Source of the DNA: an uncultured Mycobacterium sp.
Lineage (GTDB): Bacteria; Actinomycetota; Actinomycetes; Mycobacteriales; Mycobacteriaceae
Direction of reading: 5' to 3'
DNA: 32,525 bases
NCBI GenBank assembly: GCA_964598975.1
Contig: CAZRFC010000004.1
Span: 1-32,525, forward strand
Below are positions 1,501-29,488 of the stretch, in pieces (the stretch's first letter is position 1; each line of letters starts with the position of its first letter). The position numbers and the translations under genes were made by a program. Under the pieces are notes generated by a model. It was not told the DNA's origin. It searched no databases and worked only from the letters and a program-made list of their open reading frames with translations.

Positions 1501-4500
1501 CACGAACCGTCGTAGTTGCGCACCACGTAGTTGTTGTTGGTGTCGTTGTAGGCGCGAACCAGCACCTCGGAGCGGTCCGGGTCAGAGAACAGCCAGTCGT
1601 TGAATCGGTCGCGGATTTCCTGCGCCTTGACGTTGGCCATCTCGGTGGCCTCCTTGTCCAGGTGCGTGCCTTCCTTGTCCCGATACTCGACCTTGATGGT
1701 GCGGTTGTTCAGCATCGCAGCCAGAAGCTGCTCGCCCGTGTACTTGGGGATGCCCCACTTGTTCGAGTTGTTCACCTCCGAGCCGACCTTGATGTAGGTG
1801 GCATAGGAGCTGTTCATCTTCTGGTACTGGATGCTGGCCTCGGTGCCTTCGCCGAACAGCTCCTTGGCGAAGTCCTCATAGACCGATGTGGGAACCCACG
1901 GGGCGCCGATCTTGGCGCCAATCTCGTGGGCGGGCACATCCTCGGGCTGCACGCGCTCCAGCGCCGACACGTTGCCGGCCATGCCGGCCGCCTTGGCCTG
2001 GGCCAGCTTCTTGCGCACGTTGCCGGACAGGTAGACGTCGCGTAGCGTGTACTCGTCGGTGGCAGGATCCAGGAACAGAAGCGGGCTGTCTCCGCTGATC
2101 ATGTCCTGGAGCACGTCCTGCGCTGGCCGGCCCAGCAGCTCGGCGATATAGGCGGTGTCCAGCCGGCCGCGCTCGGCCATGGACACGGCAATCGCATCCT
2201 CCGGCTTGTCCACGCGCTGCACCTTGGTGCGCGAGTTCACCACGCTCTGCCGGAAGATCGCCGACTTCTTGGCTGTGCTCTTCGTCGGCTTCAGGCCCAT
2301 CTTCTTGGCCTCTGCCGCGCCGATGCCGGGCGTGTAGTCCGTCTCCAGCGACAGCAGCAGGGGGAAGTCCGGGTCATCATCGAACACCCGATAGGTGCCC
2401 CGGTCGTTCAGCAGATGATGCTTCTTGACGAACTCGTCATACTGCTCGTTGAGCTTCTGGCGAAGGGCATCCATCTCCTCGCTGCCGGCGAACTCCGCGG
2501 CCAGCAGGGAGCGCAGTGTCGAGCGCATCTCTGCCAGCCGGCGCAGCTTGTCGAACCCGTCCGCGCCCAGCGACGTCTTGGCGGTCCACTTCGTCTCAGC
2601 AGTGATTTCCACGCCCCGCGGTTCGCCGGCCATGTCGGTCAAGCGCTGGATCAGCTTCCCGTCCTCGATGAAGAACCCGCCTTCCTGGACCGGCGGGTTG
2701 CGCAGGGCGATGACGGCCGCGTCGACCATATCCGAGGTGCCCATCTCAGCGGCGCTCTTGTAGACGCTCTCAGGCAGCCGGGCAACGGCCTCCTTCAGCA
2801 GTGCGGCGGTGTCCTGCCCGGGACGCGCGACCACGGCCGAAGCGCCCTTGCGGTACATCGTACCGTAGGGCCCGAATTCACCCAGCATCATCTCCGGGTG
2901 GTCGTGGAAATACTGGTTCAGGGGCAGCTTCTCGCCGGTGGCGGATGTCCAATTCGGCGCAGCCATCCAGGCCGCGGCCTCCGCCCTTGCGGCCTTGCTG
3001 CCCCATTCGGACTCGGGGCGCTTCTGCAAGAAGATGATGTCGGTTGTGACCTCGGTGCCGGCGTTCTTGCTGAATGCGTTGTTGGGCAGGCGGATGGCCC
3101 CGAGGAACTTGGTGCGGTCGCCGATGTACTTGCGCGCGCGGTCGCCCTGGGCGTCCAGGAAGCCGCTGGTGACAACCTGCGCCAGGATGCCGCCCTCGCG
3201 CAGCATGTCCACGCTCTTGGCGAAGAAGTAGTTGTGGAGGGTCAGCCCCGTGAGGTGCTTGCGGCCGCTGGAGTCCGTCTGCGAGTCGGCGGCGAATGGC
3301 GGGTTGCCCACCACCGCATCGAAGTAGCCGTCATTGCCCTTGAACTCGGTGAAGTCCGCGAGCTGGACGTTCTGCATCGGGTACAGCGCGTGCGCGATGG
3401 TCGCTGCCATGGGCTCTCGCTCCACCGCCGTCACCCGTCCCGCACTGCGCATGTCCTGCGGCATCAGCCCGATGAAGTTGCCCACCCCGGCGCCCGGTTC
3501 GAGCACGCGACCACCCGTGAAGCCGAAGCGACGCAGCGCGGCGTAGATGCCGTCCTGCACCACTTGCCGGCTGGTGTAGTGGGCGTAGCGCGTGCTCCGC
3601 TTGGCCGCCGCGTACTCCTCTTCGGTCAGCAGCGACTTGAGCTCCACGAATTCACGCTGCCAGTCCGGCTTGTCCGCATCGAAGGCCTCCCACACGGCGC
3701 CCCAGCCGGCGTACTTGGCCAGTACCTGCTGCTCCTCGGGCGTGACCACGCGGCCGCCGCCGAGGGTGGCCTCCTGCTCCATCAGCTCCTTGGCCAGCCG
3801 GACGGCGGCGATGGTGTCGCGGAACTTCTGCTTCTTGCCGCCCTCGCCCAGCTCGAAGTCGTCCTCGATGGTGAAATCCTGGGGCTTGAACTGCGGCGGT
3901 TGTGCGGGCTCCAGCGTGGGGCTGGTCAGTCCGTCATCGGCTCCTTCTCGCCGGGCATCGTCAAAGAGCCCAGGCCCTGCATCAGCTCGCGGTGGGCGCG
4001 GAACCCCTCCGTTTCCGGCAGGCTTGGCTCCGCGCCGGGCTCGGCCTCCGGAAACAGGTGCACCCGCGCCTGCTCCCATGCCTGCTGAAACTCCAGACCC
4101 TGGGACAGCAGAATCTGGAGCTCCTTGCTGGTCGTCTCGGCCGCCTTGGTCAGGTACTCGTCCAGATCCCCGCTTGCCGTCAGCCGCTGGAACGTCTGCG
4201 GACGGTTCTCCTCCAGGTGCGCCCTCGCTTGGGCGATCCATGTTGCGTGCTGTGCCATCTTGGCCTCCGTTGTTGGCCGGTGGTGCGGCCGGTGTCGTCG
4301 TGGTCGATTCCTCGTCGTCTGCCAGCACGTCCGCCAGCTCGGTCATCACCACCTCGCCCTTGGGCGTGATGGCCTTGTCCTGGTGTCGGCGGGCCGTGGC
4401 GATGTACGCGCCTTGCAGGGTGTCCAGCGGGATGGCGTCGGCCGCGTCCTGGTCGATGGCATCCGCGATGAACTTGCGCACGTAGCGCGCGGCCTGCTTG

Positions 4501-7500
4501 AACTTCACATAGCCCAGGTCCATCGCGCCCTCGAACAACTCGATCACGATGGGGAGCATGGCCTGCTCCTGCTCCGGCGTGATGTTCATGCGCGTGTTCT
4601 TGGACAGCAGTTGCGCCAGCTTCGCGGCGGCGCCCAGCATCTTGGCCTTGGCGGCCTTCTCCTGCTCGGTCAGGGGGTCGGGCTTGGGGGCGGCAGTTGG
4701 AGTGGGGGCGGCCGGTGCATCCGCCTCTTTCGGGGTCCATCCAGCCTTTCGCAGTGCGACGAGCTTCTCCTTGATGTCGTCCGGAAGGTAGTTCCAGAGA
4801 ACCTTCGTCAGGTCGCCGTCTTTCCCGTAGCCGGCGCGCTGGTTGCTCACTCCGATGGCCTGGAGCGCTTGCACGCGGCCGGGCGCCAGCAGGGAATCCT
4901 TCTGGCCCCGTGCGCCACCGACGCCCCACCATCCCTCGATGCCTGCGCGGTCCTCGTAGCCCTGCATCTCGGAGTCCAGCTCGTCACGCTGGCCGACGTC
5001 CGGCTTCTTGGTCGTCAACTGGTCGCGCGGGTAGGCGGCGCCTCGGCGATCCGCCATGCCGTCCCACATGACCATGACCACCTTGCCGTCTTCCTTGAAT
5101 CCGCGCACCACTCCAGCGTTTCCGCTGTCCTTCGCGTAGACGGTCTGGTTGACTGACAGTTGCTCGCCGGCCGGGTTCTCGCTTGGCGGCCGGTCATCGC
5201 GCGCCGGAGCCCGCATCGCAACCGACACGAAGTCGCGCACCATCCTCGAAGCCTCGGCCCCGTATGGCACATCGGCAGACTGCGCCACAGTTCCGCCAGC
5301 GAATCTGGTGACGAACACCGTCCCGTTGTCGGGTGACAGTCGGGCCTCCACCTCATGCCCGCTGCCGAGGTCGATGCTCCACTTGCGCGGGTCCAGTCCG
5401 TCCAGTTCGAGGCCGGCAGTCAGCATGGCTCGGCCGAACTGCACCACCGGGCTGTTGTCTCGGGTCTCTTGGGCGGCGCCTTTGCGCGGCGCGGCCGGGG
5501 CGCTGGTCGCCTTGGGCCTGCGCTCCTTGATGGCGTCGCGCAGGGCCTTGTTGGCAGAGTCGATGGCCCGGTCGTTGCCGTCGTCGGCCACGAGGTCGAA
5601 CACCTCGCGCTCGCTCATGCCGGCGTCCAGCGCTTGCTGCACCAGCTTCTCGTCCACGCCGCGGAACTCGCGCGCGATGGTCTTGGCCACCCCCAGATCC
5701 TGGGCGTTGTTGGCCATGAAGAAGGCATACGCGAAGCCCTCGGGCGTCAGGCTGCGGCCGAACTTGTCGTAGCCGGACAGCTTCGTGATCTTGCTGCCCT
5801 CGGTGGGCTCCACGTTGGCCTGGGGGAGGTCCGTCTCGAAGCTGCCCCACAGCATCGTGCGCTTCGTGTACGGGTCGCCATAGTTGTGCGGCTGGAACGC
5901 CAGCGTCGGGTTGGGCAACCCGGTGAGCTTGGCGATGCGTCCCACGGGGTTCTCCAGGGCCCAGATGGACGGGCGGAACAGGGAGATGGTGCGCAGGGTC
6001 TGGCGCACGAGCTCGATGCTGGCCTCGGTGCGGCCGTCGGCGTCCTTCTTTGACCACGCATGCGCACCCGAGCTGCTGAAGTCGGTGCAGGGCGGCGCGG
6101 CCAGAATCGCGTAGACGTTCTGGATGTCCAGCTCCTCGATGAGGTACTGCGCGCTGAAGTCGTTGATGTCCTGGCCGTTCTGGATGTCGAACGTGATCAC
6201 GTTGTAGCCGGCGTCGCGCCACGGCTGACTCCACACCCCGGAAGCATCGAACAGGGACAGGACCGTCTTCTCGCTGTTCGCGCTGTCTTCGCCCTGGGCC
6301 ATGGCGTGGGCTTTCCACTCGTCCAGGCGCTTCTTGGCCTCCTCGGGCGTCATCACGCCGGTCGTCGCCTTGTCGGCGTCCACCATCTTGTCGGCGGGCT
6401 TGAAGAGGTCGTCGTAGGGGTCCTCGTCTTCGCCCATGCTCTCGTTCATCAGCTCGACGAACGCCTCCTCCGGTACCGGCAAAGGCGCCTTGCGCGAGTT
6501 GGTGGCCTCGGGCGCTTGCTGCTCGTCCTGCGCCGCGGCGGCCGGCATGATGCGCATGACGGTCTTCTGCCAGCCCGGCTCCAGGGCATCCCACGGCTGG
6601 GCGCTCACGCGGTCGATGGCCTTGCCCTTGGCCTTCGTGTTCTGGGTCAGCAGCACGCGGCGCTCGCCGGGCGTCATGCGGTCCCAGCGGGCACCGACGT
6701 CCGAGCCCTGGCCGGCGGCCGGCGGCGCTACATCAGCGCTCGGGGCGCCTTCTGCATCAGCAGCCACAGGTCCGCCGGACGGACCAATCTCACCTGCCCG
6801 ACCGTCTGCGGCATCAGCGGCAGCGGCACCAGGATCGGCGTCTGGCGCAGGCGCCGGGGTAGGCGAGGCGGCCGCCGCGCTGGAATCGTCGGTGGTCGCA
6901 CTCGGGAACTCCTTGACCGTGTTCAGCAGTTGGGTGATCGGGGCCTTCAGCCGGATGATCCGGATGGGCTTGTCGTCTTGCAGGGCTTGGGCCCACTGGT
7001 GGTGGCCGTCGAGGATCCGGTTGTCTGCGCTCACCAGGATGGCGCGGTTGCCGCCCGTGAACGCTCGGGCCTGCTCGATCTTGGCCGGGCTGTACTCAGC
7101 CTGGGTCGGTCGCAGCGTGCCGGGGGACACGTCCAGCTCTTCGCTGTGCTCGATGCCGCGGGCGTTCAGGAAGTTGACCATCGCGCCGCGGTGCTCGGCC
7201 TTGATCTGAGGCATGTCGGTGCGCGGCACGTCCAGACTGCGCATCTCGGGCGGGAACCGCTTCCAGCCGTCTACTTCGGCAGCAGCATCTCCATTGGCAT
7301 CACTTCGTCCGTCCAGACCACCGAGAGCTCGTAGCCCACCAGTTTCGCCTTGACCAACTTGGGGGTCAGCATCACTGGCGCCTGCTCCTCGACCACCTTG
7401 ATCCGCCAGACCTGTGGGGGCAACATCCAGTCCAGCATCGCCGCCACGTGGCGCCACTCCGGTACCGGCCGGCATGCCTCCTGGCGCAGCAGCCCCAGGT

Positions 7501-9053
7501 GCTCCGGCAGGTTGGCCGGCGGTGGAAGTTGATACGGCGGACTGGTCAGCAGACTTGCTGCCGCCGAGTGCGTCAGGGTTCGCTTCATCGGGAGCTCCAG
7601 GTTTCGTGCGCGGCCGGACAATCCAGCCGCCCTGCACGGGGATCGTGATGCCACCAATGGCCGAGGCGGTCTTGTTGGCCGCCACCTCGGACAGGGGGGC
7701 GCCGGCCGGGCCGATGCGGTCGCCCGGCTCGATGATGGCGTCCATGTGCGGAAGCTGGCGCACCGGGCGCTCGCGCACGCTTTGCAGCTCCCGATTGGCG
7801 TCCTCTCGCATGCCGGCGATGTAGTCGTCGGCGCGGCGGTCCTCCAGGTTGGATCGCGCGGCCGTGATCATCGAGGCATTGGTGTCTGCGCCGCCCAGCG
7901 ACGGAACGCCCAGCAGCGCAGCCGGATCGGTGCCGGTGAGGGACTTCTCCATGCGGGCGGTAGCGTCGCCAACCTGGGCCGCCGGCACGCCGCCCGGCAT
8001 CTCGGGCATCTTCACCGACTTCTGGAAAGCGTCGATGGCCGTGTCCACGTCCGGCGCGGCGATGATGTCGCGCGGCTTCTTCTCGGGCTCGGCGGGCTTG
8101 CGCAGGGCGCCAGCGAGGTTCGCTCCGCCGCCCATTGCGGCGCCCGACAGCGTGCCCAGCACGGCCGCCTGCGAGACTTGATAGTCCAGGGGGCGGTCGA
8201 GCGCGATGTTCTGGAGCACTTGCTCCATGACGGACTGGGGCAGCTCCTCCAGCAGGCCCTCAGAGACGGCCCCTTCGAGCACTTGGCGGGTGATGCCCTT
8301 GGCCACCTTCGGGTTGACCGCGGCTCCGGCGAGCATCGTGTCGACGTCGGCGATGCCCAGGCTCTTGGCCACCCGGGCTCCCAGCATGCCGAACAGGCTG
8401 GTGGCGGCGCCGGTAGCCACGGCCAGCCTTGGCTGGTCGCCGGTCAGCAGGCCGTCCTTGGTTTCCTGGCGGATCTGCTCGGCCGCGCTGCCGGCCGATG
8501 CGATGCCTTCGCCCAGGGCGCCGGCCATGCCCGCGCCGATGCGCCCGCCGGCAGCGGCCACCATCCCGCGGCCGGCCAAGCCGCCGGCACCCATCAGCGG
8601 CAGGCTCTCCACGATGGAATGACCGATGGTGGACGGGTTGCTGACAGCCGCCTTGAAGGTGTTCCACAGCCCCTCGGCCTTCTGGACTTGCTCGTTGGCG
8701 GCCTTCTGGGCGGGGCTGTAGGCCTCGTCCAGCATCTTCTTGGCCTCGCCCGGCCGGAAGCCAACCTCCTCCAGGGCCTTGCCGGCCCGGCCGCCGGTAA
8801 CGATGTCGGCCAGACCGACGGCCGCTTCGGGTACGCCGATGGCGCCCTTGAGTGCACTCAGTCCGGTGTCGGCGACGGTTCCCCAGAAGGTTCGGGGTGG
8901 TGCCGGCGGCTCCTTCGGCGTGACGCCGAGCTGCTTGGCGACCTGTTCACGCGGGAGGTCCGCGTAGTAGGCCATGTGGATGGCGTCGACCACCTGATCA
9001 TCGTCCAGACCTTCCAGGTGGGGCAGCGTTGCCCGAGCTTCTTGCAGATTCAT
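1..9053 (-). CDS. Giant DarB-like polyvalent (probably virion-ejected, antirestriction) protein, >3017 aa, 3' end outside the window
   Basis: ATG at 9053 with AAGGA upstream (MNLQEARATLPHLEGLDDDQVVDAIHMAYY...). The same frame at the window edge reads KGTQLVFSDLGTP. No minus-strand ORF in this frame appears in the track, consistent with no internal stop. Contains ParB-like, PC/ENP C5-MTase, EPGAGVG/NPPF N6-MTase and HVVGAGKT/DEAH SNF2 motifs. It is the last gene of the ejection-protein block. Confidence 0.93.
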   Translation of the reverse strand, partial: MNLQEARATLPHLEGLDDDQVVDAIHMAYYADLPREQVAKQLGVTPKEPPAPPRTFWGTVADTGLSALKGAIGVPEAAVGLADIVTGGRAGKALEEVGFRPGEAKKMLDEAYSPAQKAANEQVQKAEGLWNTFKAAVSNPSTIGHSIVESLPLMGAGGLAGRGMVAAAGGRIGAGMAGALGEGIASAGSAAEQIRQETKDGLLTGDQPRLAVATGAATSLFGMLGARVAKSLGIADVDTMLAGAAVNPKVAKGITRQVLEGAVSEGLLEELPQSVMEQVLQNIALDRPLDYQVSQAAVLGTLSGAAMGGGANLAGALRKPAEPEKKPRDIIAAPDVDTAIDAFQKSVKMPEMPGGVPAAQVGDATARMEKSLTGTDPAALLGVPSLGGADTNASMITAARSNLEDRRADDYIAGMREDANRELQSVRERPVRQLPHMDAIIEPGDRIGPAGAPLSEVAANKTASAIGGITIPVQGGWIVRPRTKPGAPDEANPDALGGSKSADQSAVSTSTAGQPAGAPGAAAPGGMPAGTGVAPRGGDAGLDVAPTGLADQGGRGAGASDADPQVGQGETGGLRALGGLDGRSDANGDAAAEVDGWKRFPPEMRSLDVPRTDMPQIKAEHRGAMVNFLNARGIEHSEELDVSPGTLRPTQAEYSPAKIEQARAFTGGNRAILVSADNRILDGHHQWAQALQDDKPIRIIRLKAPITQLLNTVKEFPSATTDDSSAAAASPTPAPAPDADPGAAAADAADGRAGEIGPSGGPVAADAEGAPSADVAPPAAGQGSDVGARWDRMTPGERRVLLTQNTKAKGKAIDRVSAQPWDALEPGWQKTVMRIMPAAAAQDEQQAPEATNSRKAPLPVPEEAFVELMNESMGEDEDPYDDLFKPADKMVDADKATTGVMTPEEAKKRLDEWKAHAMAQGEDSANSEKTVLSLFDASGVWSQPWRDAGYNVITFDIQNGQDINDFSAQYLIEELDIQNVYAILAAPPCTDFSSSGAHAWSKKDADGRTEASIELVRQTLRTISLFRPSIWALENPVGRIAKLTGLPNPTLAFQPHNYGDPYTKRTMLWGSFETDLPQANVEPTEGSKITKLSGYDKFGRSLTPEGFAYAFFMANNAQDLGVAKTIAREFRGVDEKLVQQALDAGMSEREVFDLVADDGNDRAIDSANKALRDAIKERRPKATSAPAAPRKGAAQETRDNSPVVQFGRAMLTAGLELDGLDPRKWSIDLGSGHEVEARLSPDNGTVFVTRFAGGTVAQSADVPYGAEASRMVRDFVSVAMRAPARDDRPPSENPAGEQLSVNQTVYAKDSGNAGVVRGFKEDGKVVMVMWDGMADRRGAAYPRDQLTTKKPDVGQRDELDSEMQGYEDRAGIEGWWGVGGARGQKDSLLAPGRVQALQAIGVSNQRAGYGKDGDLTKVLWNYLPDDIKEKLVALRKAGWTPKEADAPAAPTPTAAPKPDPLTEQEKAAKAKMLGAAAKLAQLLSKNTRMNITPEQEQAMLPIVIELFEGAMDLGYVKFKQAARYVRKFIADAIDQDAADAIPLDTLQGAYIATARRHQDKAITPKGEVVMTELADVLADDEESTTTTPAAPPANNGGQDGTARNMDRPSEGAPGGEPSADVPAADGKRGSGRVPDQGGRDDQQGAPDSAVPGSGVSAGMGAGAGAPVSGGRARRGAKPAGNGGVPRPPRADAGPGLFDDARREGADDGLTSPTLEPAQPPQFKPQDFTIEDDFELGEGGKKQKFRDTIAAVRLAKELMEQEATLGGGRVVTPEEQQVLAKYAGWGAVWEAFDADKPDWQREFVELKSLLTEEEYAAAKRSTRYAHYTSRQVVQDGIYAALRRFGFTGGRVLEPGAGVGNFIGLMPQDMRSAGRVTAVEREPMAATIAHALYPMQNVQLADFTEFKGNDGYFDAVVGNPPFAADSQTDSSGRKHLTGLTLHNYFFAKSVDMLREGGILAQVVTSGFLDAQGDRARKYIGDRTKFLGAIRLPNNAFSKNAGTEVTTDIIFLQKRPESEWGSKAARAEAAAWMAAPNWTSATGEKLPLNQYFHDHPEMMLGEFGPYGTMYRKGASAVVARPGQDTAALLKEAVARLPESVYKSAAEMGTSDMVDAAVIALRNPPVQEGGFFIEDGKLIQRLTDMAGEPRGVEITAETKWTAKTSLGADGFDKLRRLAEMRSTLRSLLAAEFAGSEEMDALRQKLNEQYDEFVKKHHLLNDRGTYRVFDDDPDFPLLLSLETDYTPGIGAAEAKKMGLKPTKSTAKKSAIFRQSVVNSRTKVQRVDKPEDAIAVSMAERGRLDTAYIAELLGRPAQDVLQDMISGDSPLLFLDPATDEYTLRDVYLSGNVRKKLAQAKAAGMAGNVSALERVQPEDVPAHEIGAKIGAPWVPTSVYEDFAKELFGEGTEASIQYQKMNSSYATYIKVGSEVNNSNKWGIPKYTGEQLLAAMLNNRTIKVEYRDKEGTHLDKEATEMANVKAQEIRDRFNDWLFSDPDRSEVLVRAYNDTNNNYVVRNYDGSWMTFPGKVPDSIIKFRRHQRNAIARIVQDRTTLLDHVVGAGKTFTVVSAAIELRRTGLAKKPMVTVPNHLVKQWAADFYRLYPGARVLTASKKDFQRENRRRFLAKIATGDWDAVVIAHSSFGFIRPGAEFEAKFNDKQVALLKEALEEVQDGDGNESAKKRTVKQLEGMIERLENRIKSLRDKAMDDLLDFDQLGVDQLFVDEAHLFKNLLYTTKLQGVAGLGDPAGAKRAYDMYVKTQEVMEKNGRGQGVVFATGTPVSNSLAEKYHMMRYLMPQQMEELGFQSFDAWANTYAEVTQVWMQKTSGDGFKAQNRMSTFVNVHELLRLFDQVADTVTNQDIKQAYREENNGEEYPLPPVKTGRRIPVSIEQTPAQREYMADLVKRAKVLEAKKGPPKKGEDNHLSLMTDARKAAMDIRLVDVDRIEREPGGRVDAAAANIFERYQQYAKHKGTQLVFSDLGTPVKHAQAELKEYNALRGIIAEASEDVRDRAALGDERSQ
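2850..3880 (-). other. N6-adenine DNA methyltransferase domain of the giant protein
   Basis: LAKYAGWG, AHYTS, VLEPGAGVGNF (motif I), VVGNPPF (NPPF at 3294-3305), LHNYFFAKS, GAIRLPNNAF, GTEVTTDIIFLQK. Confidence 0.93.
3926..4258 (-). CDS. Nested same-strand gene (+1 frame inside the giant ORF), 110 aa, TnpV-like helical protein
   Basis: GGAGG 5 nt before the ATG. Codons in this frame mostly end in G/C, while the host frame turns into G/R/P/A/D low-complexity sequence. HLEENRPQTFQRLTASGDLDEYL resembles the TnpV signature (YLKEHRP.LY..LL.SGKL..YL). Confidence 0.82.
   Translation of the reverse strand: MAQHATWIAQARAHLEENRPQTFQRLTASGDLDEYLTKAAETTSKELQILLSQGLEFQQAWEQARVHLFPEAEPGAEPSLPETEGFRAHRELMQGLGSLTMPGEKEPMTD
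5710..6270 (-). other. Compact C5-cytosine DNA methyltransferase-like domain of the giant protein
   Basis: TVLSLFDASG (variant motif I), ILAAPPCTDF (catalytic PC at 6087-6092), WALENPVG (ENP at 5946-5954), YTKRTMLW, RSLTPEGFAYAFF. Confidence 0.85.
6728..6901 (-). CDS. Candidate nested small gene (+1 frame), 57 aa
   Basis: AAGGAG 7 nt before a GTG. Reads MRPPTIPARRPPRLPRRLRQTPILVPLPLMPQTVGQVRLVRPADLWLLMQKAPRALM*. Over about 6730-6840 the host-frame codons are unusually A/T-ending and the +1 frame is G/C-ending. Confidence 0.4.
   Translation of the reverse strand: MRPPTIPARRPPRLPRRLRQTPILVPLPLMPQTVGQVRLVRPADLWLLMQKAPRALM
6905..7266 (-). other. ParB/Sulfiredoxin-like domain of the giant protein
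   Basis: PRTDMPQI...TLRPTQAEY...ILVSADNRILDGHHQW...IRIIRL matches the ParB-N PTQ and DGHH(R/Q) motifs. Confidence 0.8.
7271..7588 (-). CDS. Nested same-strand gene (+1 frame inside the giant ORF), 105 aa hypothetical protein
   Basis: GGAG 6 nt before the ATG at 7588 (MKRTLTHSAAASLL...EMLLPK*). Globular-type composition with G/C-ending codons. The host frame over the same interval is a G/A/D/P-rich linker. Confidence 0.72.
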   Translation of the reverse strand: MKRTLTHSAAASLLTSPPYQLPPPANLPEHLGLLRQEACRPVPEWRHVAAMLDWMLPPQVWRIKVVEEQAPVMLTPKLVKAKLVGYELSVVWTDEVMPMEMLLPK

Positions 9054-9072
9054 CCGCGGCGTCCTTGTGTGG

Positions 9073-9150
9073 CTTGCGCGCCCTTGGCGCAAGACCGTGA
9101 AAGTTGCCGGGGCAGCTACCCCGGCGTCGCCATTATCAGCCTGCCGGGGC
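9073..9150 (-). promoter_or_regulatory. Structured leader upstream of the giant gene (alternative hairpins; possible sigma70-like promoter)
   Basis: Minus-strand GCCGGGG-TAGCTG-CCCCGGC hairpin (9106-9125) followed by AACTTTC. A second CCCCGGC lies at 9143-9149. CTTGCGC/GCGCAAG stem (9073-9093) sits just before the SD. TTGTGA-N18-GATAAT overlaps the upstream stop. Confidence 0.4.
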
Positions 9151-9155
9151 TGGTT

Positions 9156-10583
9156 TCACAAGCCCAAGGCCTCGCGGACCCTGCGCTGTTGCGCGGGCAT
9201 CATGTCCTTCAGCAGCGCGTCGAGGCGCTTGCCGGCCAGACTGGCCTCGGCGGTGGCGCGTTGGACGGCGCCCTCCTGCTGCGACTTGGCGGCCTCCACC
9301 ACCTTCTGCTGGGCTTGCCGAACTGCCTGGGCAGCCTGGATGAGGGCGGGGGCACGCTCGCCCACGATCTGCTCGATTTCCGTGCTGCCCGAGGCGCCCA
9401 GGGCCGTGCGCACGGCCAGATCCGGGGACGGCGGCGCGGCCGGCGGCAGGGGGCCGCCTCGCGTGCCGGCGCGCAGCTTGGCGATCTTCTCCTCCATGGA
9501 TCCGCCGAAGTCCTCGCCCCGCTTCACCCGGCCGGCATCGTTGACGCCCGGGATGTCGCCCAGACTGCGCGGGAGCGCGGTTGGCCCCGCGGCCGGAGGA
9601 CCGCCAGCGGTGATCATGGACCGAGCGGGAGCGGCCGCCGGACGTGGCGCCGGCGCGGCAGGGGCCCGGCCGATGGTCACGCCGACCCGCTTGGCCTCCT
9701 CCTGGATGCGCTGAAGGTCGGTTTCCGCGCGCTCGATTTCCTCCGGCGTCTTCGCCTGCTGGCGGTGGCGCGTGGCCTTCTCGAACTCCTGGGTGTAGAT
9801 CGTCTGATAGTCGTTGTCGCCCGGCTGGATGAGCGCACCGGGCTTGCCGGCTGGCGCGCGATGGGCCGCCGAGCCTGATGGCGAGCGTGCGCCACGCATG
9901 CCCAGAGGGTCGGCCGCGGCCGGCTGCCCGGCCTCCTTGGTGCCGCGTGCGTAGAGGCCTTCGCGGCGCAGCTTGAGGGCGGACAGCTCCGCCTCCATGC
10001 GCTTCTGGTCCGGCGTGCCAGCCCATTCCTGCTTCGCGCGGGCGTTGTCGATGGCGGTGGCCTTGCGCTCGATTTCCTTGTCCAGCGAGTCGATCTGCTC
10101 CTTGAGCATCGGGTCGAGCTTCTTGCCGGATCCCTCCACCAGCGCGGTGGACCGGCCGGAGTAGTAGTCGGCACGAGCGCGCCGCTCCTCCTTCTCCGCG
10201 TCCGTCTCCTGGGCCTCCTTCATGGCCTTGGTGTTGGCGGCGATGGTGTCCCGGTTCTTGGTGTTGAACTCCAGGTCGGCGCTCTTGGCCTTGACGGAGG
10301 CGCTGACGGCCATGTCGGCACGCTCGGGCGCCCGGGTCTTCTCGTTCTCCCATGCCCGGGTGTCTGCCCGGATGGCCGTCTGCTCCGCGCGCTGCTCGGC
10401 CTGAATCTTGTAGCCCTCGGCCGTGCGAAGGCGCCACTCTTCCATGGCCTTCTGGTCGGCCTGGGCCTGCTTGCGCTCCTCTTCCTTCTGCATGAGGGCG
10501 GCCTCGTTCATCATGGCGCCGCCGAGCCCGGTACCGCCACCGAAGCCGCCGAGTGCGCCGATCATCCCGAATCCCATACCCAT
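9156..10583 (-). CDS. Putative internal virion/ejection protein, 475 aa
   Basis: Gly-rich hydrophobic N-terminus (MGMGFGMIGALGGFGGG) followed by charged coiled-coil sequence. GGAGG SD. Lies in the ejection block. Confidence 0.75.
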   Translation of the reverse strand: MGMGFGMIGALGGFGGGTGLGGAMMNEAALMQKEEERKQAQADQKAMEEWRLRTAEGYKIQAEQRAEQTAIRADTRAWENEKTRAPERADMAVSASVKAKSADLEFNTKNRDTIAANTKAMKEAQETDAEKEERRARADYYSGRSTALVEGSGKKLDPMLKEQIDSLDKEIERKATAIDNARAKQEWAGTPDQKRMEAELSALKLRREGLYARGTKEAGQPAAADPLGMRGARSPSGSAAHRAPAGKPGALIQPGDNDYQTIYTQEFEKATRHRQQAKTPEEIERAETDLQRIQEEAKRVGVTIGRAPAAPAPRPAAAPARSMITAGGPPAAGPTALPRSLGDIPGVNDAGRVKRGEDFGGSMEEKIAKLRAGTRGGPLPPAAPPSPDLAVRTALGASGSTEIEQIVGERAPALIQAAQAVRQAQQKVVEAAKSQQEGAVQRATAEASLAGKRLDALLKDMMPAQQRRVREALGL

Positions 10584-13728: not shown

Positions 13729-14936
13729 GCGCCCACCCTTTCGATGAAAAGCTCCGTGTAGTACTCGGCCGTGCCCGCGCTCTGCGGCTCGCCGCCCGTC
13801 ACCGTCACGCCCACGCTGATCCAGTGCTCCACCTGCAGCACCTTCTGCGCCGCCAGCGTCACGCGGGCCCGCAGTTGCGCGGTGCCGCCCAGCGAGTGGT
13901 GCACGTTCTGGCCATACACCAGCGCCGCGCCGTCCGTCACGTTGGTGATCTTCAGCCGCGAGTGGAAGGTGTTGGAGCCCGAGTACTGCGGCGCCGACGC
14001 CTCGATGTCGTAGGTGCCCGCCGGCAGCGTCACCTGGTTGCTGCCCAGCGAGGCGCCGGCGATGGTGTTGGCCACCACCGTGTTGAGCGTGCGCACGTTC
14101 CAGGCGTTGGCCGTCAGCGACCCAGCGCCCGTGCCAGCCGTCTTCTCGTCGCGCACGTGCAGCAGGCCCGCCACCGTGGGCGCACCCGAGGCGCGGAAGA
14201 CCACGCAGCGGAACTGCGTGGTGGTGATCGCGCGCACCAGCACCATGTCCCCCGCGGCCAGCGTCACCGTCTGGCCGCTGGCCACGCCGGCGATCAGCAG
14301 GTTGGCCCCGGCCGTCAGCGGCCAGGCGTCGGCGGCCACCAGCCAGCGCTCGGCGCCGGCCTGCGGCGCCGCGGGCAGCCCGGTGGTGGTGGTGGTGCCC
14401 GTCACCGTCATCAGGTTGCCCTTCGCGGCGGCCCAGATGTCCATCGTGGTGGCCGCGCTGGCGATAGTCCCGCCGCCGAGCTCGTTGATGCCGGACGATG
14501 CGCTGCCGCCGAGGGTGGCCGTCGGCCCGGTCTTGCCGCTGACGTTGATGTTCCAGTCGGTGTAGGAGCCGGCGCCGGCCGTGTCGGTCGCGGCGGCCAC
14601 GTTGATGGTCAGGGCTCCGGTGCTGGAGTTGTAGGCTGTAACCTGACCCACCATGTACGCGGTTGGCGTGCCGGCGCTCGCCGCCACCAGAAGCTGGCCG
14701 ACGGACCATCCCTTGCTGGTGCTGGCCGTGAAGCTCTTGGATCCGGTGCCGATGGACACGGATGTGGTGCTGGTGCCGGCCAGCGAAGCCGCGGCCGCCG
14801 TCAGAAGGTCGGTCTGAACGTCGTCGAAGCCCGCAGAAACGGCGTCCAGGGCATCGTTGAGGTCCGCCGCCCGCACGGTGTCGAAGCGGATGAAGCGGCT
14901 GGCCGATGCTGGCCAATCGAAGTAGATGTTGCTTAT
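13725..14936 (-). CDS. Tail fibre/receptor-binding protein, about 403 aa; apparent start codon is ATA
   Basis: Thr/Ala/Gly-rich beta-type domains and a C-terminal C1q/TNF-like jelly-roll (NQVTLPAGTYDIEASAP). GAGGAG lies 7 nt before ATA-AGC-AAC (ISNIYFDW). Upstream in-frame TTGs at 14957 and 14975 lack an SD. Confidence 0.85.
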   Translation of the reverse strand: MSNIYFDWPASASRFIRFDTVRAADLNDALDAVSAGFDDVQTDLLTAAAASLAGTSTTSVSIGTGSKSFTASTSKGWSVGQLLVAASAGTPTAYMVGQVTAYNSSTGALTINVAAATDTAGAGSYTDWNINVSGKTGPTATLGGSASSGINELGGGTIASAATTMDIWAAAKGNLMTVTGTTTTTGLPAAPQAGAERWLVAADAWPLTAGANLLIAGVASGQTVTLAAGDMVLVRAITTTQFRCVVFRASGAPTVAGLLHVRDEKTAGTGAGSLTANAWNVRTLNTVVANTIAGASLGSNQVTLPAGTYDIEASAPQYSGSNTFHSRLKITNVTDGAALVYGQNVHHSLGGTAQLRARVTLAAQKVLQVEHWISVGVTVTGGEPQSAGTAEYYTELFIERVGA

Positions 14937-14958
14937 TTTAGCTCTCCTCTGCCACAAT
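14929..14958 (+). promoter_or_regulatory. Putative sigma70 promoter giving a leaderless HNH transcript
   Basis: TTGCTT-N18-CACAAT with a TGn extension. The ATG is 7 nt after the -10 box and there is no SD. Confidence 0.45.
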
Positions 14959-14965
14959 CGCGGCG

Positions 14966-15601
14966 ATGAAGACAATCACAAAGCAGCAGGCCATTGCGGC
15001 TGGTCTTACAGCCTACTACACAGGGAAGCCATGCCCTCATGGTCATGTTGCCCATCGAATAGTTTCCAGCGGAAGCTGTTCCGAGTGCGCGAAAGCAAAC
15101 GGCAAAAGGCATTACACGAACAACCGCGACGCCTACATCAAGAGGGCGACAGACAGGATAGCCGCGAACCCGGAGGCATTCAACGAAGCGTGCCGCAACA
15201 GAAGAAGCAACAATCCGGGCCTTCACAAAGACAGAGACAGGAAGAAGCGCGAAAAATACGGTCAGCAGTTGGCCATATACCAGCAGTTGTGGAGGCTTGC
15301 CAACCCAGATAGAAGCAGGCTTAACTCCAGGGCCAAGGAGGCGAAACGTCGAGCCAAACAAGCGGCCTCTGGCGGAAGCTATACGCGCGAAGAGTTGCTC
15401 AACCTTTACGTTCTGCAGCGCGGACGATGCGCCGAGTGCTGCGCCAAACTTGTGTAGCATCACGCCGATCACATACAGCCCATCGCTCTCGGAGGAGACA
15501 GTTCGATTCGCAATATTCAGCTTCTTTGCCCGACTTGCAACAAAAGAAAGAGTTCTCTCGATCCCATCGAGCACGCCAAACGACAAGGACGCCTTCTCTA
15601 G
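14966..15601 (+). pseudogene. Free-standing HNH homing endonuclease with an in-frame amber stop
   Basis: YYTGKPCPHGH...CSEC N-terminus, QRGRCAEC, TAG at 15455-15457, then in the same frame HHADHIQPIALGG...NIQLLCPTCNKRK to TAG at 15599-15601. Visibly lower GC than the flanks, and antisense to the late operon. Confidence 0.9.
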
Positions 15602-15606
15602 CAGCA

Positions 15607-17742
15607 TCATGAAGAAGGCCCTCCTTTGGCCCGGTAGAGGCCCGTGCGCGAGAAGTACACCAGAAGGCCTTGAAGGGTGACGGGGCGCACGAAGTCGCTC
15701 TCGAAGAAGATGATCAGGGCCATGTTCGATCCGCGGCCCTCCAGGTCGGCGTCAACCTGAACAATCCGCGCGCGGTCCATCTGCACGGTGTCCAGCGCGT
15801 CCAGGTCGAACGATCCGCCGATGGCGTCGATGTCCATGTCCTGCGTGCCGCCGTGGCTGTAGAGCCCGTCGTCGTAGTTGAACAGTTGGCGGAAGTTGAC
15901 CGTCACGAAGTCGGTCGACAGGTACTCGGCGCACATCTTGTGGAAGTGCTTCTCCACGTTGGGCGTCTTGTAGTGGTTGTACGGCAGGAACAGCGAATAG
16001 ACGATGGCCACGCCGTCGAAGCTGGTGCCGGCATCCTCCTCCATCACGTATCCGTCGCTCGTGCCCATGAACTTGTGCTCTCGGCCGTCGGACATGATGC
16101 CGGCGGCGAAGCAGGTTGGCACGTGGTCGTACTGGCTGATGGAGAAGGACACGTCCTTGGGCGTCAGCACGGGGTTGCCGGACATGATCGAGCATCGCAG
16201 GGCCATACCGTCGGAGAAGTACAGGCGGTACTGGTTCGTCTCCTTGGCCATGCGCGAGCCCACAACCTGGGTCATCTTGGCGTTGAGCGTGGTGCGCACG
16301 TTCTTGGACATGATGGCCGGCTCGAAGTCGCCGAAGTTCTGCGTTGCCTGGAGCGTGGTCAGCCCCTTGTCGTCCAGGAAGATGGCGTTGCCGGTGTTGT
16401 CCTGCACGGACCCCGAGAAAGCGCCGGTGTCGGTGGTGTGGTCACGCATCTCCCAGTCGAGGGAGCTGCTGCCGGCCAGCTTCTTGATCAGGTTGCGCGC
16501 GAACACGCCCAGGAGCTCTCCGCGCAGGGACGTGAGCCCGGTGATTTCCGCCCCGATGCCGAACAGGGCGGCCGTCGTGGTGTACGTCATCGGGCTTCCC
16601 AGGTCCGAGGACTGGAGTTGGCCGTAGGGGTAGGCGAGGAAGAGATGGTCCTTGAACGAGTCCACCAGGAACGGCTTGTCGCTGTAGTCAGTGAGCCCGA
16701 TTTCCCAGTTGTTGATGGTGCCCGAGCCGCCCACGCTGGTGACATTCACGTCGAGCTGGCCCGTGCCGCTGTTGTAGGCGGTCACGGTGCCGTTCATGTA
16801 GTTGGCCGCATTGGTCTGCTGCCAGATGGTGATGGCGTCTCCGGCCACCCAGTTCCGGCTTGCTGTGGCGCTGGTGAAGGTCTTGGCGCCGACGCCGATG
16901 GTCACGTTGGTGGTGCTCAGTGCCTCGCTGCCGTAGATCGGATCGGCATAGGTGAACGTGCCATCGCGCGTGAGGCTGAACAGTCGGCCCTTGCCGCTCA
17001 CTCCGAAGAGCGTTGTCTCGGTCGACGATCCGCTGAAGTTGGCCACCTCGAACTTGTAGGATGCGGACGGTTGCAGCCCGGTGCGCACGCTGACCCATCC
17101 ACTGGCCGATGACTTCCAGAGCGTGGCCGATCCGCTGCCGACGATGTTTCGCACGCAGTAGACAACCTCGTCGAACACGGCCACGCCCAGAATGGCCCCC
17201 TCCCCGGTCGGCTTCTGGATGAGCGCTCGCAGGTACTCGCGCGCGGCGGTCAGCGCTGCCACGTGGCCCGAGTAGCCGACGGACCCCACCTCGATGTCGT
17301 CGGCCGCCAGGGCGTAAGTGACGCCGCCGACCCGGATCAGGTCGTTGTTCTCCCACTCGCCGGACAGGCCCACCAGCAGCAGCGTGCCTGCCGCGTCGCC
17401 GCCGGCCCAGGATCCGGTCGCAAGGGTCACGCTCACCACCGTGGCCGATGCGACTGCGCCGTCGGTGATGGTGTCGCCGGCCACGATGGCCGACGATCCG
17501 GTGTCGAACGGCAGGATGGCGTAGTTGCACTCGCTGGGCTTACTGCGGCCGTCGAACCGCTCATAGCCCTGGATGGTGCGCGCGCCCTGGACGCCGAAGA
17601 TGGACTCCCAGTTGCGCACGGAGTACATCCGGCCGGGCTTGATGACCATGCCGGCCGCGTCCTCCTCCAGGCCGCCGGCAATCGGGATGTATTCCGACTC
17701 CCAGGGCTCTGCGAAGCGTGTGCGCTTGGGGTTGCCCCTCAT
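15607..17742 (-). CDS. Tail nozzle/packaged-DNA stabilisation protein (P22 gp10/T7 gp12-like), 711 aa
   Basis: ATGA overlap with the adaptor stop. IAGGLEE N-terminus and beta-propeller-like repeats. Located between adaptor and fibre. Confidence 0.8.
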   Translation of the reverse strand: MRGNPKRTRFAEPWESEYIPIAGGLEEDAAGMVIKPGRMYSVRNWESIFGVQGARTIQGYERFDGRSKPSECNYAILPFDTGSSAIVAGDTITDGAVASATVVSVTLATGSWAGGDAAGTLLLVGLSGEWENNDLIRVGGVTYALAADDIEVGSVGYSGHVAALTAAREYLRALIQKPTGEGAILGVAVFDEVVYCVRNIVGSGSATLWKSSASGWVSVRTGLQPSASYKFEVANFSGSSTETTLFGVSGKGRLFSLTRDGTFTYADPIYGSEALSTTNVTIGVGAKTFTSATASRNWVAGDAITIWQQTNAANYMNGTVTAYNSGTGQLDVNVTSVGGSGTINNWEIGLTDYSDKPFLVDSFKDHLFLAYPYGQLQSSDLGSPMTYTTTAALFGIGAEITGLTSLRGELLGVFARNLIKKLAGSSSLDWEMRDHTTDTGAFSGSVQDNTGNAIFLDDKGLTTLQATQNFGDFEPAIMSKNVRTTLNAKMTQVVGSRMAKETNQYRLYFSDGMALRCSIMSGNPVLTPKDVSFSISQYDHVPTCFAAGIMSDGREHKFMGTSDGYVMEEDAGTSFDGVAIVYSLFLPYNHYKTPNVEKHFHKMCAEYLSTDFVTVNFRQLFNYDDGLYSHGGTQDMDIDAIGGSFDLDALDTVQMDRARIVQVDADLEGRGSNMALIIFFESDFVRPVTLQGLLVYFSRTGLYRAKGGPSS

Positions 17743-18398
17743 GCAAGGGCCCCCCCGAGCATGATGCCTGGGCGGCACTTGCGCTCCATGGCGTCGATGT
17801 ACTCGTCGTACTCGCCTTTGGCGGTGTCGTAGCGCTGGGCATCCTTCACGCGGTCGCAGAAGAGCATCACGGCCCGCCACACGATGACGTCCTGGTAGTT
17901 CTCCGGGATGCGCGGCTCGTCGGTATCGGCCGCCAGTGCCTGCGGGTAGAGGTGGTACTCGTGCACCACCTTGAGGTTGGCGCGGTCTGGTACCGGGAAA
18001 TACTGCATCACGTTGTCCGGCTTCACCGTGAAGTGCGTCGGGATGCCCGCGGCCGGCGGGATGACGAGGTGCCGGAAGCGCTCCCACTCCCAGAAGGTCA
18101 GCCATTGCCGACTGGTGATGCCCACGGAGTTGTCGTAGCAGTAGGAGCCTTCCTTGCGCACGTCACGCAGGCCGCGCGCGTAGGTGTCCACGTCTTCGGT
18201 CAGGTCGAAGGTCGCGGTGATCCAGTTGAAGGTCCAGTCCTCGTGCATGTTTTGGATGCGCTCGTAGGCCTGCTGCACGAAGCGAACCATGTCAGCCTTG
18301 CGGCCGATTTGGTTCAGCACGGTGGTAGGCGCGGCGCCTCCGATGCCGGCCTCTCGATAGGCCTCTTGCACCAGTTCGATGAAGGTCCGGCTGGGCAC
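17739..18398 (-). CDS. Head-tail adaptor protein, 219 aa
   Basis: TFIELVQEAYREAG N-terminus, YFPVPD, DTDEPRIPENYQDVIVWRA. Typical adaptor pattern and position. Confidence 0.85.
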   Translation of the reverse strand: MPSRTFIELVQEAYREAGIGGAAPTTVLNQIGRKADMVRFVQQAYERIQNMHEDWTFNWITATFDLTEDVDTYARGLRDVRKEGSYCYDNSVGITSRQWLTFWEWERFRHLVIPPAAGIPTHFTVKPDNVMQYFPVPDRANLKVVHEYHLYPQALAADTDEPRIPENYQDVIVWRAVMLFCDRVKDAQRYDTAKGEYDEYIDAMERKCRPGIMLGGALA

Positions 18399-27454: not shown

Positions 27455-27640
27455 GGTTCTTTCCTGGGCGATGTGAGCGTAGGCTAACGTGCTGATGGGG
27501 CGGATTGTAGGTCTGGGGTCAGTCTGGAAGGCCTCCAGGCGACTGGGGGGTGTTGCTGGCCGGCCACGTGGGGGCGTGGGTTGTGGGTTATCAGCCTGAC
27601 AATCCCGGCGAGGACTCACTAACTTGAGGGGTGCACCACC
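27455..27640. promoter_or_regulatory. Divergent promoter region
   Basis: Non-coding gap between divergent operons. Minus-strand TACAAT (27504-27509) is preceded by two CCAGAC repeats 11 bp apart and has no consensus -35. Plus-strand GACAAT (27598-27603) is preceded by TGGGTT x2. Confidence 0.5.
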
Positions 27641-27985
27641 ATGAGTATTGCGAACAACATCAACGTCGACCAGCTCCTGGGCACAGGGGTGACGGCGACG
27701 GGCGCCGGGACGGCGCTTCGGGGCTGGGGCGGTCGCAAGACCTACTCGGCGGCTGGGTACACCACCTCGGGGGCCGGCGCGGCCACCGTGACCATCGAGG
27801 GGTCGTTCGACGACGTGACCTGGGATGTGATGGGCACCATCACGCTGACCCTCTCGAACACGGCGGCCGCCGATGCGAACAGCGACTCGTTCCTGTCCAG
27901 CGACCAGTACCCGTTCGTGCGAGCCAACGTCACGGCCCTGTCCGGTACCGGGGCCTATGTGCGCGCGGCGCGCGGCCGGGGGTGA
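27641..27985 (+). CDS. Small beta-sandwich virion-like protein, 114 aa
   Basis: GAGGGG SD. ATVTIEGSFDDVTW...YPFVRANVTALSGTGA pattern of small phage structural proteins. Confidence 0.8.
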   Translation: MSIANNINVDQLLGTGVTATGAGTALRGWGGRKTYSAAGYTTSGAGAATVTIEGSFDDVTWDVMGTITLTLSNTAAADANSDSFLSSDQYPFVRANVTALSGTGAYVRAARGRG

Positions 27986-27988
27986 GCT

Positions 27989-29131
27989 ATGACTGTCTCA
28001 GTTGACACCACGAAGACGGGCGACCAGGGCAGTCTGTTCTCCACCCTGGCGATCCAGGCCGGCGGCGTGCTGGCCATGGCGGTTGGATCCACGTTCAACC
28101 TCTACAACACCGAAGACCAGACGACGAACCATGAGCGGCTGCGGTTTGACTGGTCCGCGAACGTGGCGCGCATCTGGACGCAGAACGACGGCACCGGTAG
28201 CGAGCGCGCTCTCCGCGTTGGCACGGTCACGAGCGATGGGCTGACCGACCCTACCGTCTACACCGTCTGGCAGGGGGCCAGTGTTCCCTACATCGACAAC
28301 ATCATCCCCTCTAGCTCAAGCACTTCCGCGAACGGCCACATTCGCTTTCAAAGCGGCAACTTCAGCGCCTCGTCTGGCACTCAGACATTCTTGAATATTG
28401 CTCCAGTGTTTGCACAGACTGGAACTGCGGCAGGCATCGCCTTCCTGGTGAACCCCAGCGGCACCTTCGGCAGCGCCGGTGGCAAGATTCAAAGCTGGCA
28501 GCTCGCCAGTTCTGAAGTGGCCTATATCAACACGCCGGGATCTCTCATCGTGGCTGGCGTGCTCCGAACGGCCACAGGGCTGAACTTCGGATCTACGCTG
28601 GGCGCGTCAGACCTTGAAGTTGTCCGCGACGCCGCCGACGCTCTCGCCCTTCGCCGTGGCGCCAACGCCCAGACTTTCCGCGTCTACAATACCTACACGG
28701 ATGCGTCGAATTATGAGCGGGGCGAGGTCCGTTGGTCTGCGAATGTCTTCCGCATCGGCACTTTCAATGCAGGTACCGGCAGCGCCAGGGCTGTGCATAT
28801 TGGACCGGAAGGCGCTGCTGACCTTCTCTTGATGACGTCAGGAACCACCAGACTGACTATCAGCAGTGGCGGGACCATGACCCCCGGATCAGACAATGCT
28901 GTCGATTTTGGCAGCGGTGCTAATCGGCTGCGCAATATTTACATCGGTAGTGGTGTGATGTTCTCTTCGGTGACGGTAGCAAACCTACCAGCATCTCCCG
29001 TTGAAGGCCAACGCTGCTTCGTGACCGACTCAACTGCCACCATGACCGCAGGGGTTGGCGCAGTGGTAGCCGGAGGCGGTGCCAACAACGTCCCTGTCTA
29101 TTACGATGGCGCCAACTGGCGTATTGGTTAA
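27989..29131 (+). CDS. Fibre/spike-like protein with internal repeat, 380 aa
   Basis: S/T/G/N-rich, with two 43-aa repeats. C-terminal TVANLP...FVTDS...VAGGGANNVPVYYDGANWRIG module is common in phage fibres. Confidence 0.8.
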   Translation: MTVSVDTTKTGDQGSLFSTLAIQAGGVLAMAVGSTFNLYNTEDQTTNHERLRFDWSANVARIWTQNDGTGSERALRVGTVTSDGLTDPTVYTVWQGASVPYIDNIIPSSSSTSANGHIRFQSGNFSASSGTQTFLNIAPVFAQTGTAAGIAFLVNPSGTFGSAGGKIQSWQLASSEVAYINTPGSLIVAGVLRTATGLNFGSTLGASDLEVVRDAADALALRRGANAQTFRVYNTYTDASNYERGEVRWSANVFRIGTFNAGTGSARAVHIGPEGAADLLLMTSGTTRLTISSGGTMTPGSDNAVDFGSGANRLRNIYIGSGVMFSSVTVANLPASPVEGQRCFVTDSTATMTAGVGAVVAGGGANNVPVYYDGANWRIG

Positions 29132-29149
29132 CTTTCACTAGGAGCAAAC

Positions 29150-29488
29150 ATGCCCAAAATCACTCTCGACATTTCCGACGCGCGGTACGCTGCGCTGCGC
29201 AAGACGCAGGAGCTGATGCTGCTGAACGGCGGTACCGCCACCACGCCGGAGGAGTACCTGCTGCTGGTGGTGAACGGCGCCTGCGATTCCTATGCGACGC
29301 AGTACGCGGACAACACGCCGGAAGGCCTTGCGACCCAGGTTGCCATCCACAAGGATGCGGCGGCGCGGGCCGAGGCGAAGGCGGCGGCCGAGGAGGAGAG
29401 GCGTGTGGCGGCCGAGGCGAAGGTTGCCAATTCGGTGGCTGATGGGGGAGAATCGGTTCCCCTTTACCAGCAACTGGAGAAACTGTGA
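29150..29488 (+). CDS. Hypothetical protein, possible fibre assembly chaperone, 112 aa
   Basis: AGGAG SD. Follows the fibre-like gene. Confidence 0.75.
   Translation: MPKITLDISDARYAALRKTQELMLLNGGTATTPEEYLLLVVNGACDSYATQYADNTPEGLATQVAIHKDAAARAEAKAAAEEERRVAAEAKVANSVADGGESVPLYQQLEKL

Follow-up and report, generated by a model that had tools for sequence, protein, structure and literature searches.

The giant gene that is cut by one end of a 32,525-nucleotide contig of an uncultured Mycobacterium sp. (contig CAZRFC010000004.1 of GenBank assembly GCA_964598975.1; this whole stretch is referred to below as the window) contains, out of frame with its own coding sequence, a second and much smaller gene, which we call n1. 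The giant gene encodes a DarB-like polyvalent protein, and n1 (positions 3926..4258, minus strand; 110 amino acids, ATG start and TGA stop) lies on the same strand in the +1 frame of a linker between domains of that protein. n1 is a real, conserved, same-strand nested gene under dual-frame constraint: there is purifying selection in the nested frame, the initiation signal is conserved, and the host frame is open beyond chance. It is very probably translated separately from the giant protein, and the constancy of its downstream neighbour leads us to favour, with modest confidence, the reading that it is a partner of the methylase-SNF2 module that follows it. A second +1-frame open reading frame (ORF), n2 (7271..7588, minus strand; 105 amino acids, ATG start and TAG stop), is lineage-restricted and a candidate for another such gene.

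Within the window, codon usage distinguishes the two nested ORFs from the remainder of the giant gene, which runs as one open frame of 3030+ codons from position 9092 to the contig end (3..9092, minus strand), most likely starting at an ATG at 9053. G+C content at third codon positions (GC3) is about 0.9 elsewhere in the giant frame, drops to 0.3-0.5 along the two nested intervals (0.45 over n1 and 0.42 over n2), and in the +1 frame of the same intervals stands at 0.86 and 0.85. The codon-usage log-odds for the +1 frame over the giant frame are 0.50 per codon for n1 and 0.41 for n2, and none of 87 other 60-codon segments of the giant gene favours the +1 frame (maximum -0.07). Both ORFs are preceded by a Shine-Dalgarno (SD) sequence, GGAGG at 4264..4268 for n1 (5 nucleotides upstream of the ATG) and GGAG at 7595..7598 for n2 (6 nucleotides upstream). 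The first-pass annotation of this DNA, made from the letters alone, had described an uninterrupted ORF of more than 9 kb with two, possibly three, such intervals, each just N-terminal of an enzymatic module, and had attributed the openness of the giant frame to the scarcity of stops in the -1 frame of GC3-rich genes. The uninterrupted frame, the contrast in GC3 and the first two intervals are borne out, and the distances agree closely with those estimated then: 51 nucleotides (estimated at about 45) from the end of n1 to the methylase block, and 6 (estimated at about 5) from the end of n2 to a segment at 6903..7265 (minus strand) that we take to be ParB-like from a motif and that has no Pfam match. 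The scarcity of stops is also real, as 105-codon stretches of ordinary genes in the window are open in the -1 frame in 59% of cases and in the +1 frame in 8%, so that an open giant frame is by itself weak evidence in this GC-rich genome. The third interval, however, does not hold up. This 57-codon ORF with a GTG start (6901..6728, minus strand) was among the segments that do not favour the +1 frame; over its own length the +1 advantage is only 0.14 per codon, its product is Arg/Pro-rich, its apparent SD is the coding sequence for the K-E-F-P-S end of the ParB-like domain, and related giants retain that peptide without the start codon. We therefore reject it as a gene and regard the region as ordinary Ala/Pro-rich linker. 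Another +1 ORF, at 5356..5015, is disfavoured by codon usage and was likewise set aside.

The case for n1 rests mainly on its homologues. Besides 11 other called proteins at 51-73% identity, 907 clusters match at E up to 0.001 in a library clustered at 50% identity. A profile search over 67 viral, 28 genome and 3 metagenome loci gave 110 matches, which reduce to 90 distinct loci, the window included, once one match without a start is dropped and identical DNA is merged; a chance match in phage CM2 (L013) and a locus with no assignable start (L004) are excluded from all counts. At 82 of the 90 (79 by fixed thresholds and three after inspection) the giant frame is open and n1 is nested in its +1 frame; of the rest, one is a frameshift fusion, in phage PBC5, and seven are un-nested. 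The start codon is ATG in 78 of the 82 nested copies, and an SD precedes it in 74, as compared with 689 of 8107 (8.5%) other +1 ATGs. Selection was read frame by frame, as the first-pass annotation had proposed. Among 46 pairs of at least 90% identity, which are not independent, the proportions of nonsynonymous and synonymous differences (pN/pS) come to 0.034/0.260 for the nested frame, 0.092/0.056 for the giant frame and 0.026/0.386 for the methylase used as a control; nested third positions have changed three to four times as often as the other positions. Nested-frame identity exceeds giant-frame identity in 3043 of 3081 n1 pairs (again not independent). The constraint on the giant frame is that it be kept open: among 25 n1 representatives sharing less than 55% identity, none of 556 sites at which a silent T would create a giant-frame stop is used, where 50 would be expected from each gene's own T usage, and this avoidance includes genomes of 44-50% GC. 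Three of the seven un-nested copies do have stops in the frame equivalent to that of the giant.

The gene has been overlooked in phages that are well known. Searches of phage isolates by tblastn place n1 beneath annotated DarB-like genes of PEp14, Stean, Pavtok, VvAW1, LASTA, SopranoGao, Atu_ph08, PBC5, POI1126 and Mwe-JY07, and in Itty13 beneath a mis-called opposite strand; the nested gene is missing from the annotation of all 11 of these loci, which were retrieved by their n1 homology, just as had been supposed when standard annotation was said to miss such genes. The Itty13 record (NC_070969; L010:6975-19311) lists three opposite-strand shadow ORFs and misses a DarB-like gene of 4100 codons. 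A tblastn search of plasmids found n1 in one phage-like plasmid only, and scans of viral contigs with n1 alone, A1, n2 and A2 gave no true relative (the match in L001 is a 9-residue chance match).

Which neighbour n1 belongs to can be judged from what stays constant around it. A methylase follows n1 at 80 of the 82 nested loci, the other two being cut by contig ends, and the gap between them is usually 15-135 nucleotides, or about 520-600 where an extra domain has been inserted (in Atu_ph08, a PBECR1-like domain by Pfam). The helical domain upstream of n1 is adjacent in 50 of the 82, lies elsewhere in 11 and was not found in 21. Since the methylase is constant and the upstream domain variable, the constant neighbour of n1 is the methylase-helicase. 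Loci picked by their methylase instead of by n1 (nine of 95 phage-collection records, P1 and two Bacteroidota stretches) give a similar picture: Bcep22, Gervaise and USP_25 each have an n1-like +1 ORF directly before the methylase, which the Bcep22 GenBank record does not list, and two gut elements have in the +1 frame of the giant a TnpV that scores above the Pfam cut-off (110 and 87 bits). In Bacteroides phage BKO1-TP3 (L126, ~4600-4900) a +1 ORF of about 87 amino acids also stands before the methylase; it is unrelated to n1 by profile and has no SD by the filter used. The seven un-nested copies of n1 (in bacterial chromosomes at L087, L089, L092, L107 and L109, at ~10000-10400 except for L089 at 2438-2755, and at L088 and L038) are intact genes, two of them within or beside a broken giant gene, and some stand near type I restriction-modification genes, insertion sequences or an integrase. 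Their intactness shows that n1 presumably works as a free protein; this would fit an activity in trans such as inhibition, and would equally fit an independent function. Prediction of a complex between n1 (119-row alignment) and giant residues 1735-1990 (no alignment) scored 0.37, 0.00 and 0.07 and is used neither for nor against a partnership.

The product of n1 is modelled as an all-helical protein (predicted local distance difference test score, pLDDT, 90), and it resembles two small orphan families. Its sequence matches positions 25-82 of the 111-position model of TnpV (Pfam PF14198), a family of Tn4451-type transposons, at E 1.7e-4; the score of 22 bits is below the curated cut-off of 27, and 49 of the 119 n1 family members match at E up to 0.01. 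Judged by this profile, n1 is a distant relative of TnpV and not a member: the N-terminal part and the long insert of TnpV are missing from it, and its C-terminal tail is its own, while true TnpV genes, like n1, are nested in the +1 frame in the two gut elements. The other family is DUF1896. Both fold searches rank its member PG0816 (PDB 2APL) first, with a Z-score of 7.8 and a root-mean-square deviation of 2.2 over 64 residues at 14% identity; Foldseek gives E 0.5, and a helical-bundle score of this kind is not decisive alone. None of the 119 family members matches DUF1896 (PF08989) by sequence, and a PDB sequence search with the n1 profile returned nothing at E <0.4; homology is suggested by the structural model, and the gene context agrees with it. 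DUF1896 proteins of Bacteroidota conjugative elements have 150 amino acids and are encoded before the same methylase by a separate gene, in place of a nested one, which overlaps the methylase start by a few codons in all three Bacteroidota loci examined. A search for the family found it in none of 101 genomes of the window's phylum and in four of 201 genomes of the phylum of G399; the two best of these four were examined.

The reading that we favour, though with only slightly more confidence than doubt, is that n1, nested in the linker, has its own SD from which a free helical protein is made, and that this protein binds the methylase-SNF2 module and restrains or chaperones it. The ancestral state would have been a two-gene pair, a small gene followed by a methylase-helicase gene, an arrangement that DUF1896 retains in Bacteroidota elements; read-through of the small gene in its -1 frame, where stops are few, would then have joined an upstream virion or ejection gene to the methylase, leaving the G/R/A/D-rich linker as a by-product. 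No sigma-70 consensus match to an internal promoter for n1 or n2 is found within 3800-9100, and translation of n1 would proceed from the internal SD on the late mRNA. A single mRNA might thus yield two products: a giant protein destined for packaging and ejection, and a small partner left in the cytoplasm of the producing cell, where it would inhibit or chaperone the methylase-helicase. Other modules would have been captured likewise with small genes of their own, some of them behind their domain, and n2 is likely to be a small gene taken up alongside a module in the same way. That two-gene units were captured by read-through had already been proposed in the first-pass annotation, and the un-nested DUF1896-methylase pair in three of three Bacteroidota loci supports it; the accompanying claim, that the small partner precedes its enzyme, is not supported as a rule, as none of eight homologous ParB-like domains has a nested ORF upstream and another nested family, described below, follows its domain in 22 of 22 giants.

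Several observations weigh against this reading. The patterns used in the locus scan were derived from nested phage proteins, so nested close kin are over-represented; the TnpV genes of the two gut elements lie 570-620 codons before the methylase; and there is no n1-like ORF in P1, in one Streptococcus element or in one 5'-truncated record, so the partner is not universal. The link to DUF1896 is a modest helical match over 64 residues, and profile comparison of n1 was negative with one DUF1896 protein and weak with another. n2, for its part, rests on five homologues known as proteins only, has a structure prediction of pLDDT 49 from a 5-row alignment, and in codons 69-105 has 17 of 22 strain differences that change n2, 12 of the 22 being silent in the giant. 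Lastly, no methylase is present in the DNA examined at five stand-alone n1 loci, and small mobilisable transposons carry TnpV, which according to PMC3158075 was postulated to play an Xis-like role in excision there. These last two points, together with the lack of a link between n2 and ParB, also favour a different explanation: that the nested genes are real and translated, yet independent of the neighbouring domains, for instance as regulators or recombination accessory factors, with the giant gene a compact operon that has swallowed small genes. We regard this as possible, though unlikely, given that n1 holds its place ahead of the methylase in 80 of 82 loci even as the upstream domains change, and that a second nested family tracks its domain and relocates with it.

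That second family came from a scan in which ORFs in other frames with favourable codon usage were sought across the 82 giants. It gave 48 further candidates, all in the +1 frame and none in the +2 frame; six of these are n1 itself, called in shortened form, and a few at the extreme 5' end represent upstream genes. The family consists of +1 ORFs of about 65 amino acids directly behind a domain that we call JAB-like from its motifs and that has no Pfam match. The domain is present in 22 of the 82 giants and the small ORF in the same 22 (for example at L012:18577-18786); the two have been relocated together in L090 to another part of the gene (small ORF at 9401-9595). Of 210 pairs, 184 share higher identity in the nested frame than in the giant frame. 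The order, domain and then small gene, recalls effector-immunity pairs, and this ORF is the best candidate among the nested sequences for testing an enzyme-inhibitor pairing. Other +1 candidates were noted as well. One family of 52-82 amino acids with a strong SD is found in PEp14-type giants about 750 codons before n1 (L005:9751-9981, L006, L007, L019 and L084:7340-7588), and further candidates lie at the ends of PRTase-like, LPD37 and GGDEF-like segments (L073:17225-17410, L090:17282-17473, L084 near giant codon 4030, L005:17944-18168 and L044:1037-1240). For some of the latter the giant frame looks like a folded domain, and both frames may be structured. A more sweeping form of the favoured reading would hold that polyvalent giants are built by read-through fusion of enzyme-plus-inhibitor cassettes, each small antidote gene surviving as a +1 gene in a linker; that TnpV, DUF1896 and n1 form one superfamily of inhibitors of the DarB methylase-helicase; and that stand-alone chromosomal copies are orphan immunity genes against incoming DarB-type anti-restriction proteins. 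We offer it tentatively, as a conjecture that is rather less probable than not to hold as a whole.

A quite improbable alternative is that n1 and n2 are C-terminal tails added by +1 frameshifting to give shorter virion proteins. Its one direct precedent is phage PBC5 (L014:5755-21503), in which a frameshift just before n1 splits the giant gene and joins n1 to the upstream half, in frame with the preceding 2095 codons; the fusion is also the only significant match in a viral fold search. PBC5 is, however, one locus of 90, its frameshift may be a mutation or a sequencing error, and tails of this kind would not account for the ATG in 78 and SD in 74 of 82 loci at the homologous start, for the +1-frame stop 2-6 codons before the ATG in several loci, or for free-standing copies of n1. 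Selfish out-of-frame insertion, as with the HNH gene in the ShiLan domain of actinophage methylases, where the architecture is the same (own start and stop, host frame open and loop-like, as set out in PMC11855218), is very improbable for n1, which is small and all-helical, matches no nuclease family by Pfam or fold searches, sits between domains and not inside a conserved active region, and has an un-nested operon form.

It is equally improbable that the +1 ORFs in general are relics that go untranslated, or frames that arose by chance in GC-rich linkers. We do prefer this explanation for the unconserved third interval; for n1 it is contradicted by selection on the nested frame, the conserved SD and the avoidance of giant-frame stops; for n2 it is possible, and the small number of homologues, the drifting C-terminal third and the want of a confident fold all speak for it. 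On the other side, n2 has its SD and codon bias, and three of its five called homologues are full-length, at 58-77% identity with the same start and end. Among strain differences (32 listed, with 13 further rows not included), seven of the 10 that fall in codons 1-68 leave n2 unchanged, and all seven alter the giant (p 0.004 against 26% expected, from few and linked sites). One n2 difference would alone be a stop, and a neighbouring change co-occurs with it in the same contigs. Contigs of eight other sequencing runs, two of which span the whole ORF, have no indel in n2. Probably, then, n2 is a gene whose core is conserved and whose tail is loose, and we think it reasonably likely that it is translated. 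As a partner of ParB it is rejected, given that no nested ORF precedes that domain in any of the eight homologous giants that share it; the sequence suggests that n2 is likely tied to the small unnamed domain directly before it (7608..7733, minus strand), which is weakly similar (E 0.013) to a motif preceding other nested ORFs in L068, L084 and L050. Searches for n2 by tblastn in phages gave chance matches only, and 300 genomes of the host family gave one weak match (E 3e-4, G069), on which no claim rests.

The window is an entire contig of a 4.4-Mb assembly and has the look of a podophage-like prophage or phage contig. On the minus strand, genes for the small and the large terminase and for the portal are followed by virion genes and then, on the same strand, by the giant ORF, the position occupied by the DarB-like genes of PEp14, LASTA and Bcep22; the assembly holds no second copy or continuation of the giant gene elsewhere. 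Its domains include a C5 DNA methylase-like segment (5949..6182, minus strand; below the Pfam cut-off), the N-terminal cap and adenine methylase domain of the DarB-like dyad (3099..3875, minus strand, from Pfam and homologues; the methylase at giant residues ~1860-2030) and an SNF2-type helicase from residue ~2540, cut by the contig end (3..1466, minus strand). The C5-methylase-like segment, a second methylase within the same polyprotein, forms with the helical domain after it (5490-6270, minus strand) a unit common to four or five other giants. A sigma-70-like sequence upstream of the giant gene (9132..9161, minus strand) is a consensus match only, and no RNA data sets containing half of the stretch are listed. 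Farther along, two minus-strand ORFs of 225 and 832 amino acids without Pfam matches (14933-18105), with lower GC at 15001-16000, are probably a tail fibre region, and at 27631-29886 plus-strand ORFs of 124, 114, 380, 112 and 133 amino acids run opposite to the virion genes, with lower GC at 28001-29000 and no Pfam match for the 380-residue ORF.

The products of Rz and Rz1 work together. Ulx of P1 is an accessory factor of the DarB antirestriction system and a functional model for a chaperone role; its small gene stands separately, downstream of darB, unlike the nested n1, and homology between the two is rejected for lack of any sequence similarity. The giant protein itself is of a known kind. 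Homologues are annotated as DarB-like; an adenine methylase fused to an SNF2-type helicase in a large multi-domain protein is the DarB dyad of polyvalent proteins, which are likewise encoded by giant genes after the virion genes (Iyer et al. 2017, PMC5512222), relatives of the giant carry further LPD, InPase and PRTase domains as polyvalent proteins do, and JC1 gp69 is described as virion-associated in PMC9144972. The main text of PMC5512222 contains no mention of TnpV, overlap, frameshift or DUF1896, and we found no report of nested genes in DarB-like giants in the open-access literature, supplements being outside the scope of that search. n1 adds an unannotated gene to well-studied phages (Bcep22, PEp14, Atu_ph08, VvAW1 and LASTA) and to gut mobile elements, and gives the orphan families TnpV and DUF1896 a testable common role beside the DarB methylase-helicase. 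It also points to a route by which multi-domain proteins may grow, namely fusion by read-through of a small gene in a stop-poor frame with the "linker" as by-product, and it implies that deleting or recoding linkers in such giant genes would remove a second gene. Same-strand nested genes as such are already known, and n1 is a real, conserved and unannotated variant of them. The out-of-frame HNH gene of ShiLan is, like n1, a complete small gene in another frame of an open and loop-like host (PMC11855218), yet it is a homing nuclease inserted in a gene, whereas n1 is no nuclease and is fixed in position across distant phages. Other cases are the rpmH gene of Thermus, which lies within rnpA (PMC9841429), and Rz1, which lies within Rz (PMC9144972); each is a fully nested gene on the strand of its host, and both genes are translated. 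Each of these is one small pair, whereas in the giants a number of unrelated small genes lie in the linkers of proteins of 3000-5000 residues and move with their domains.

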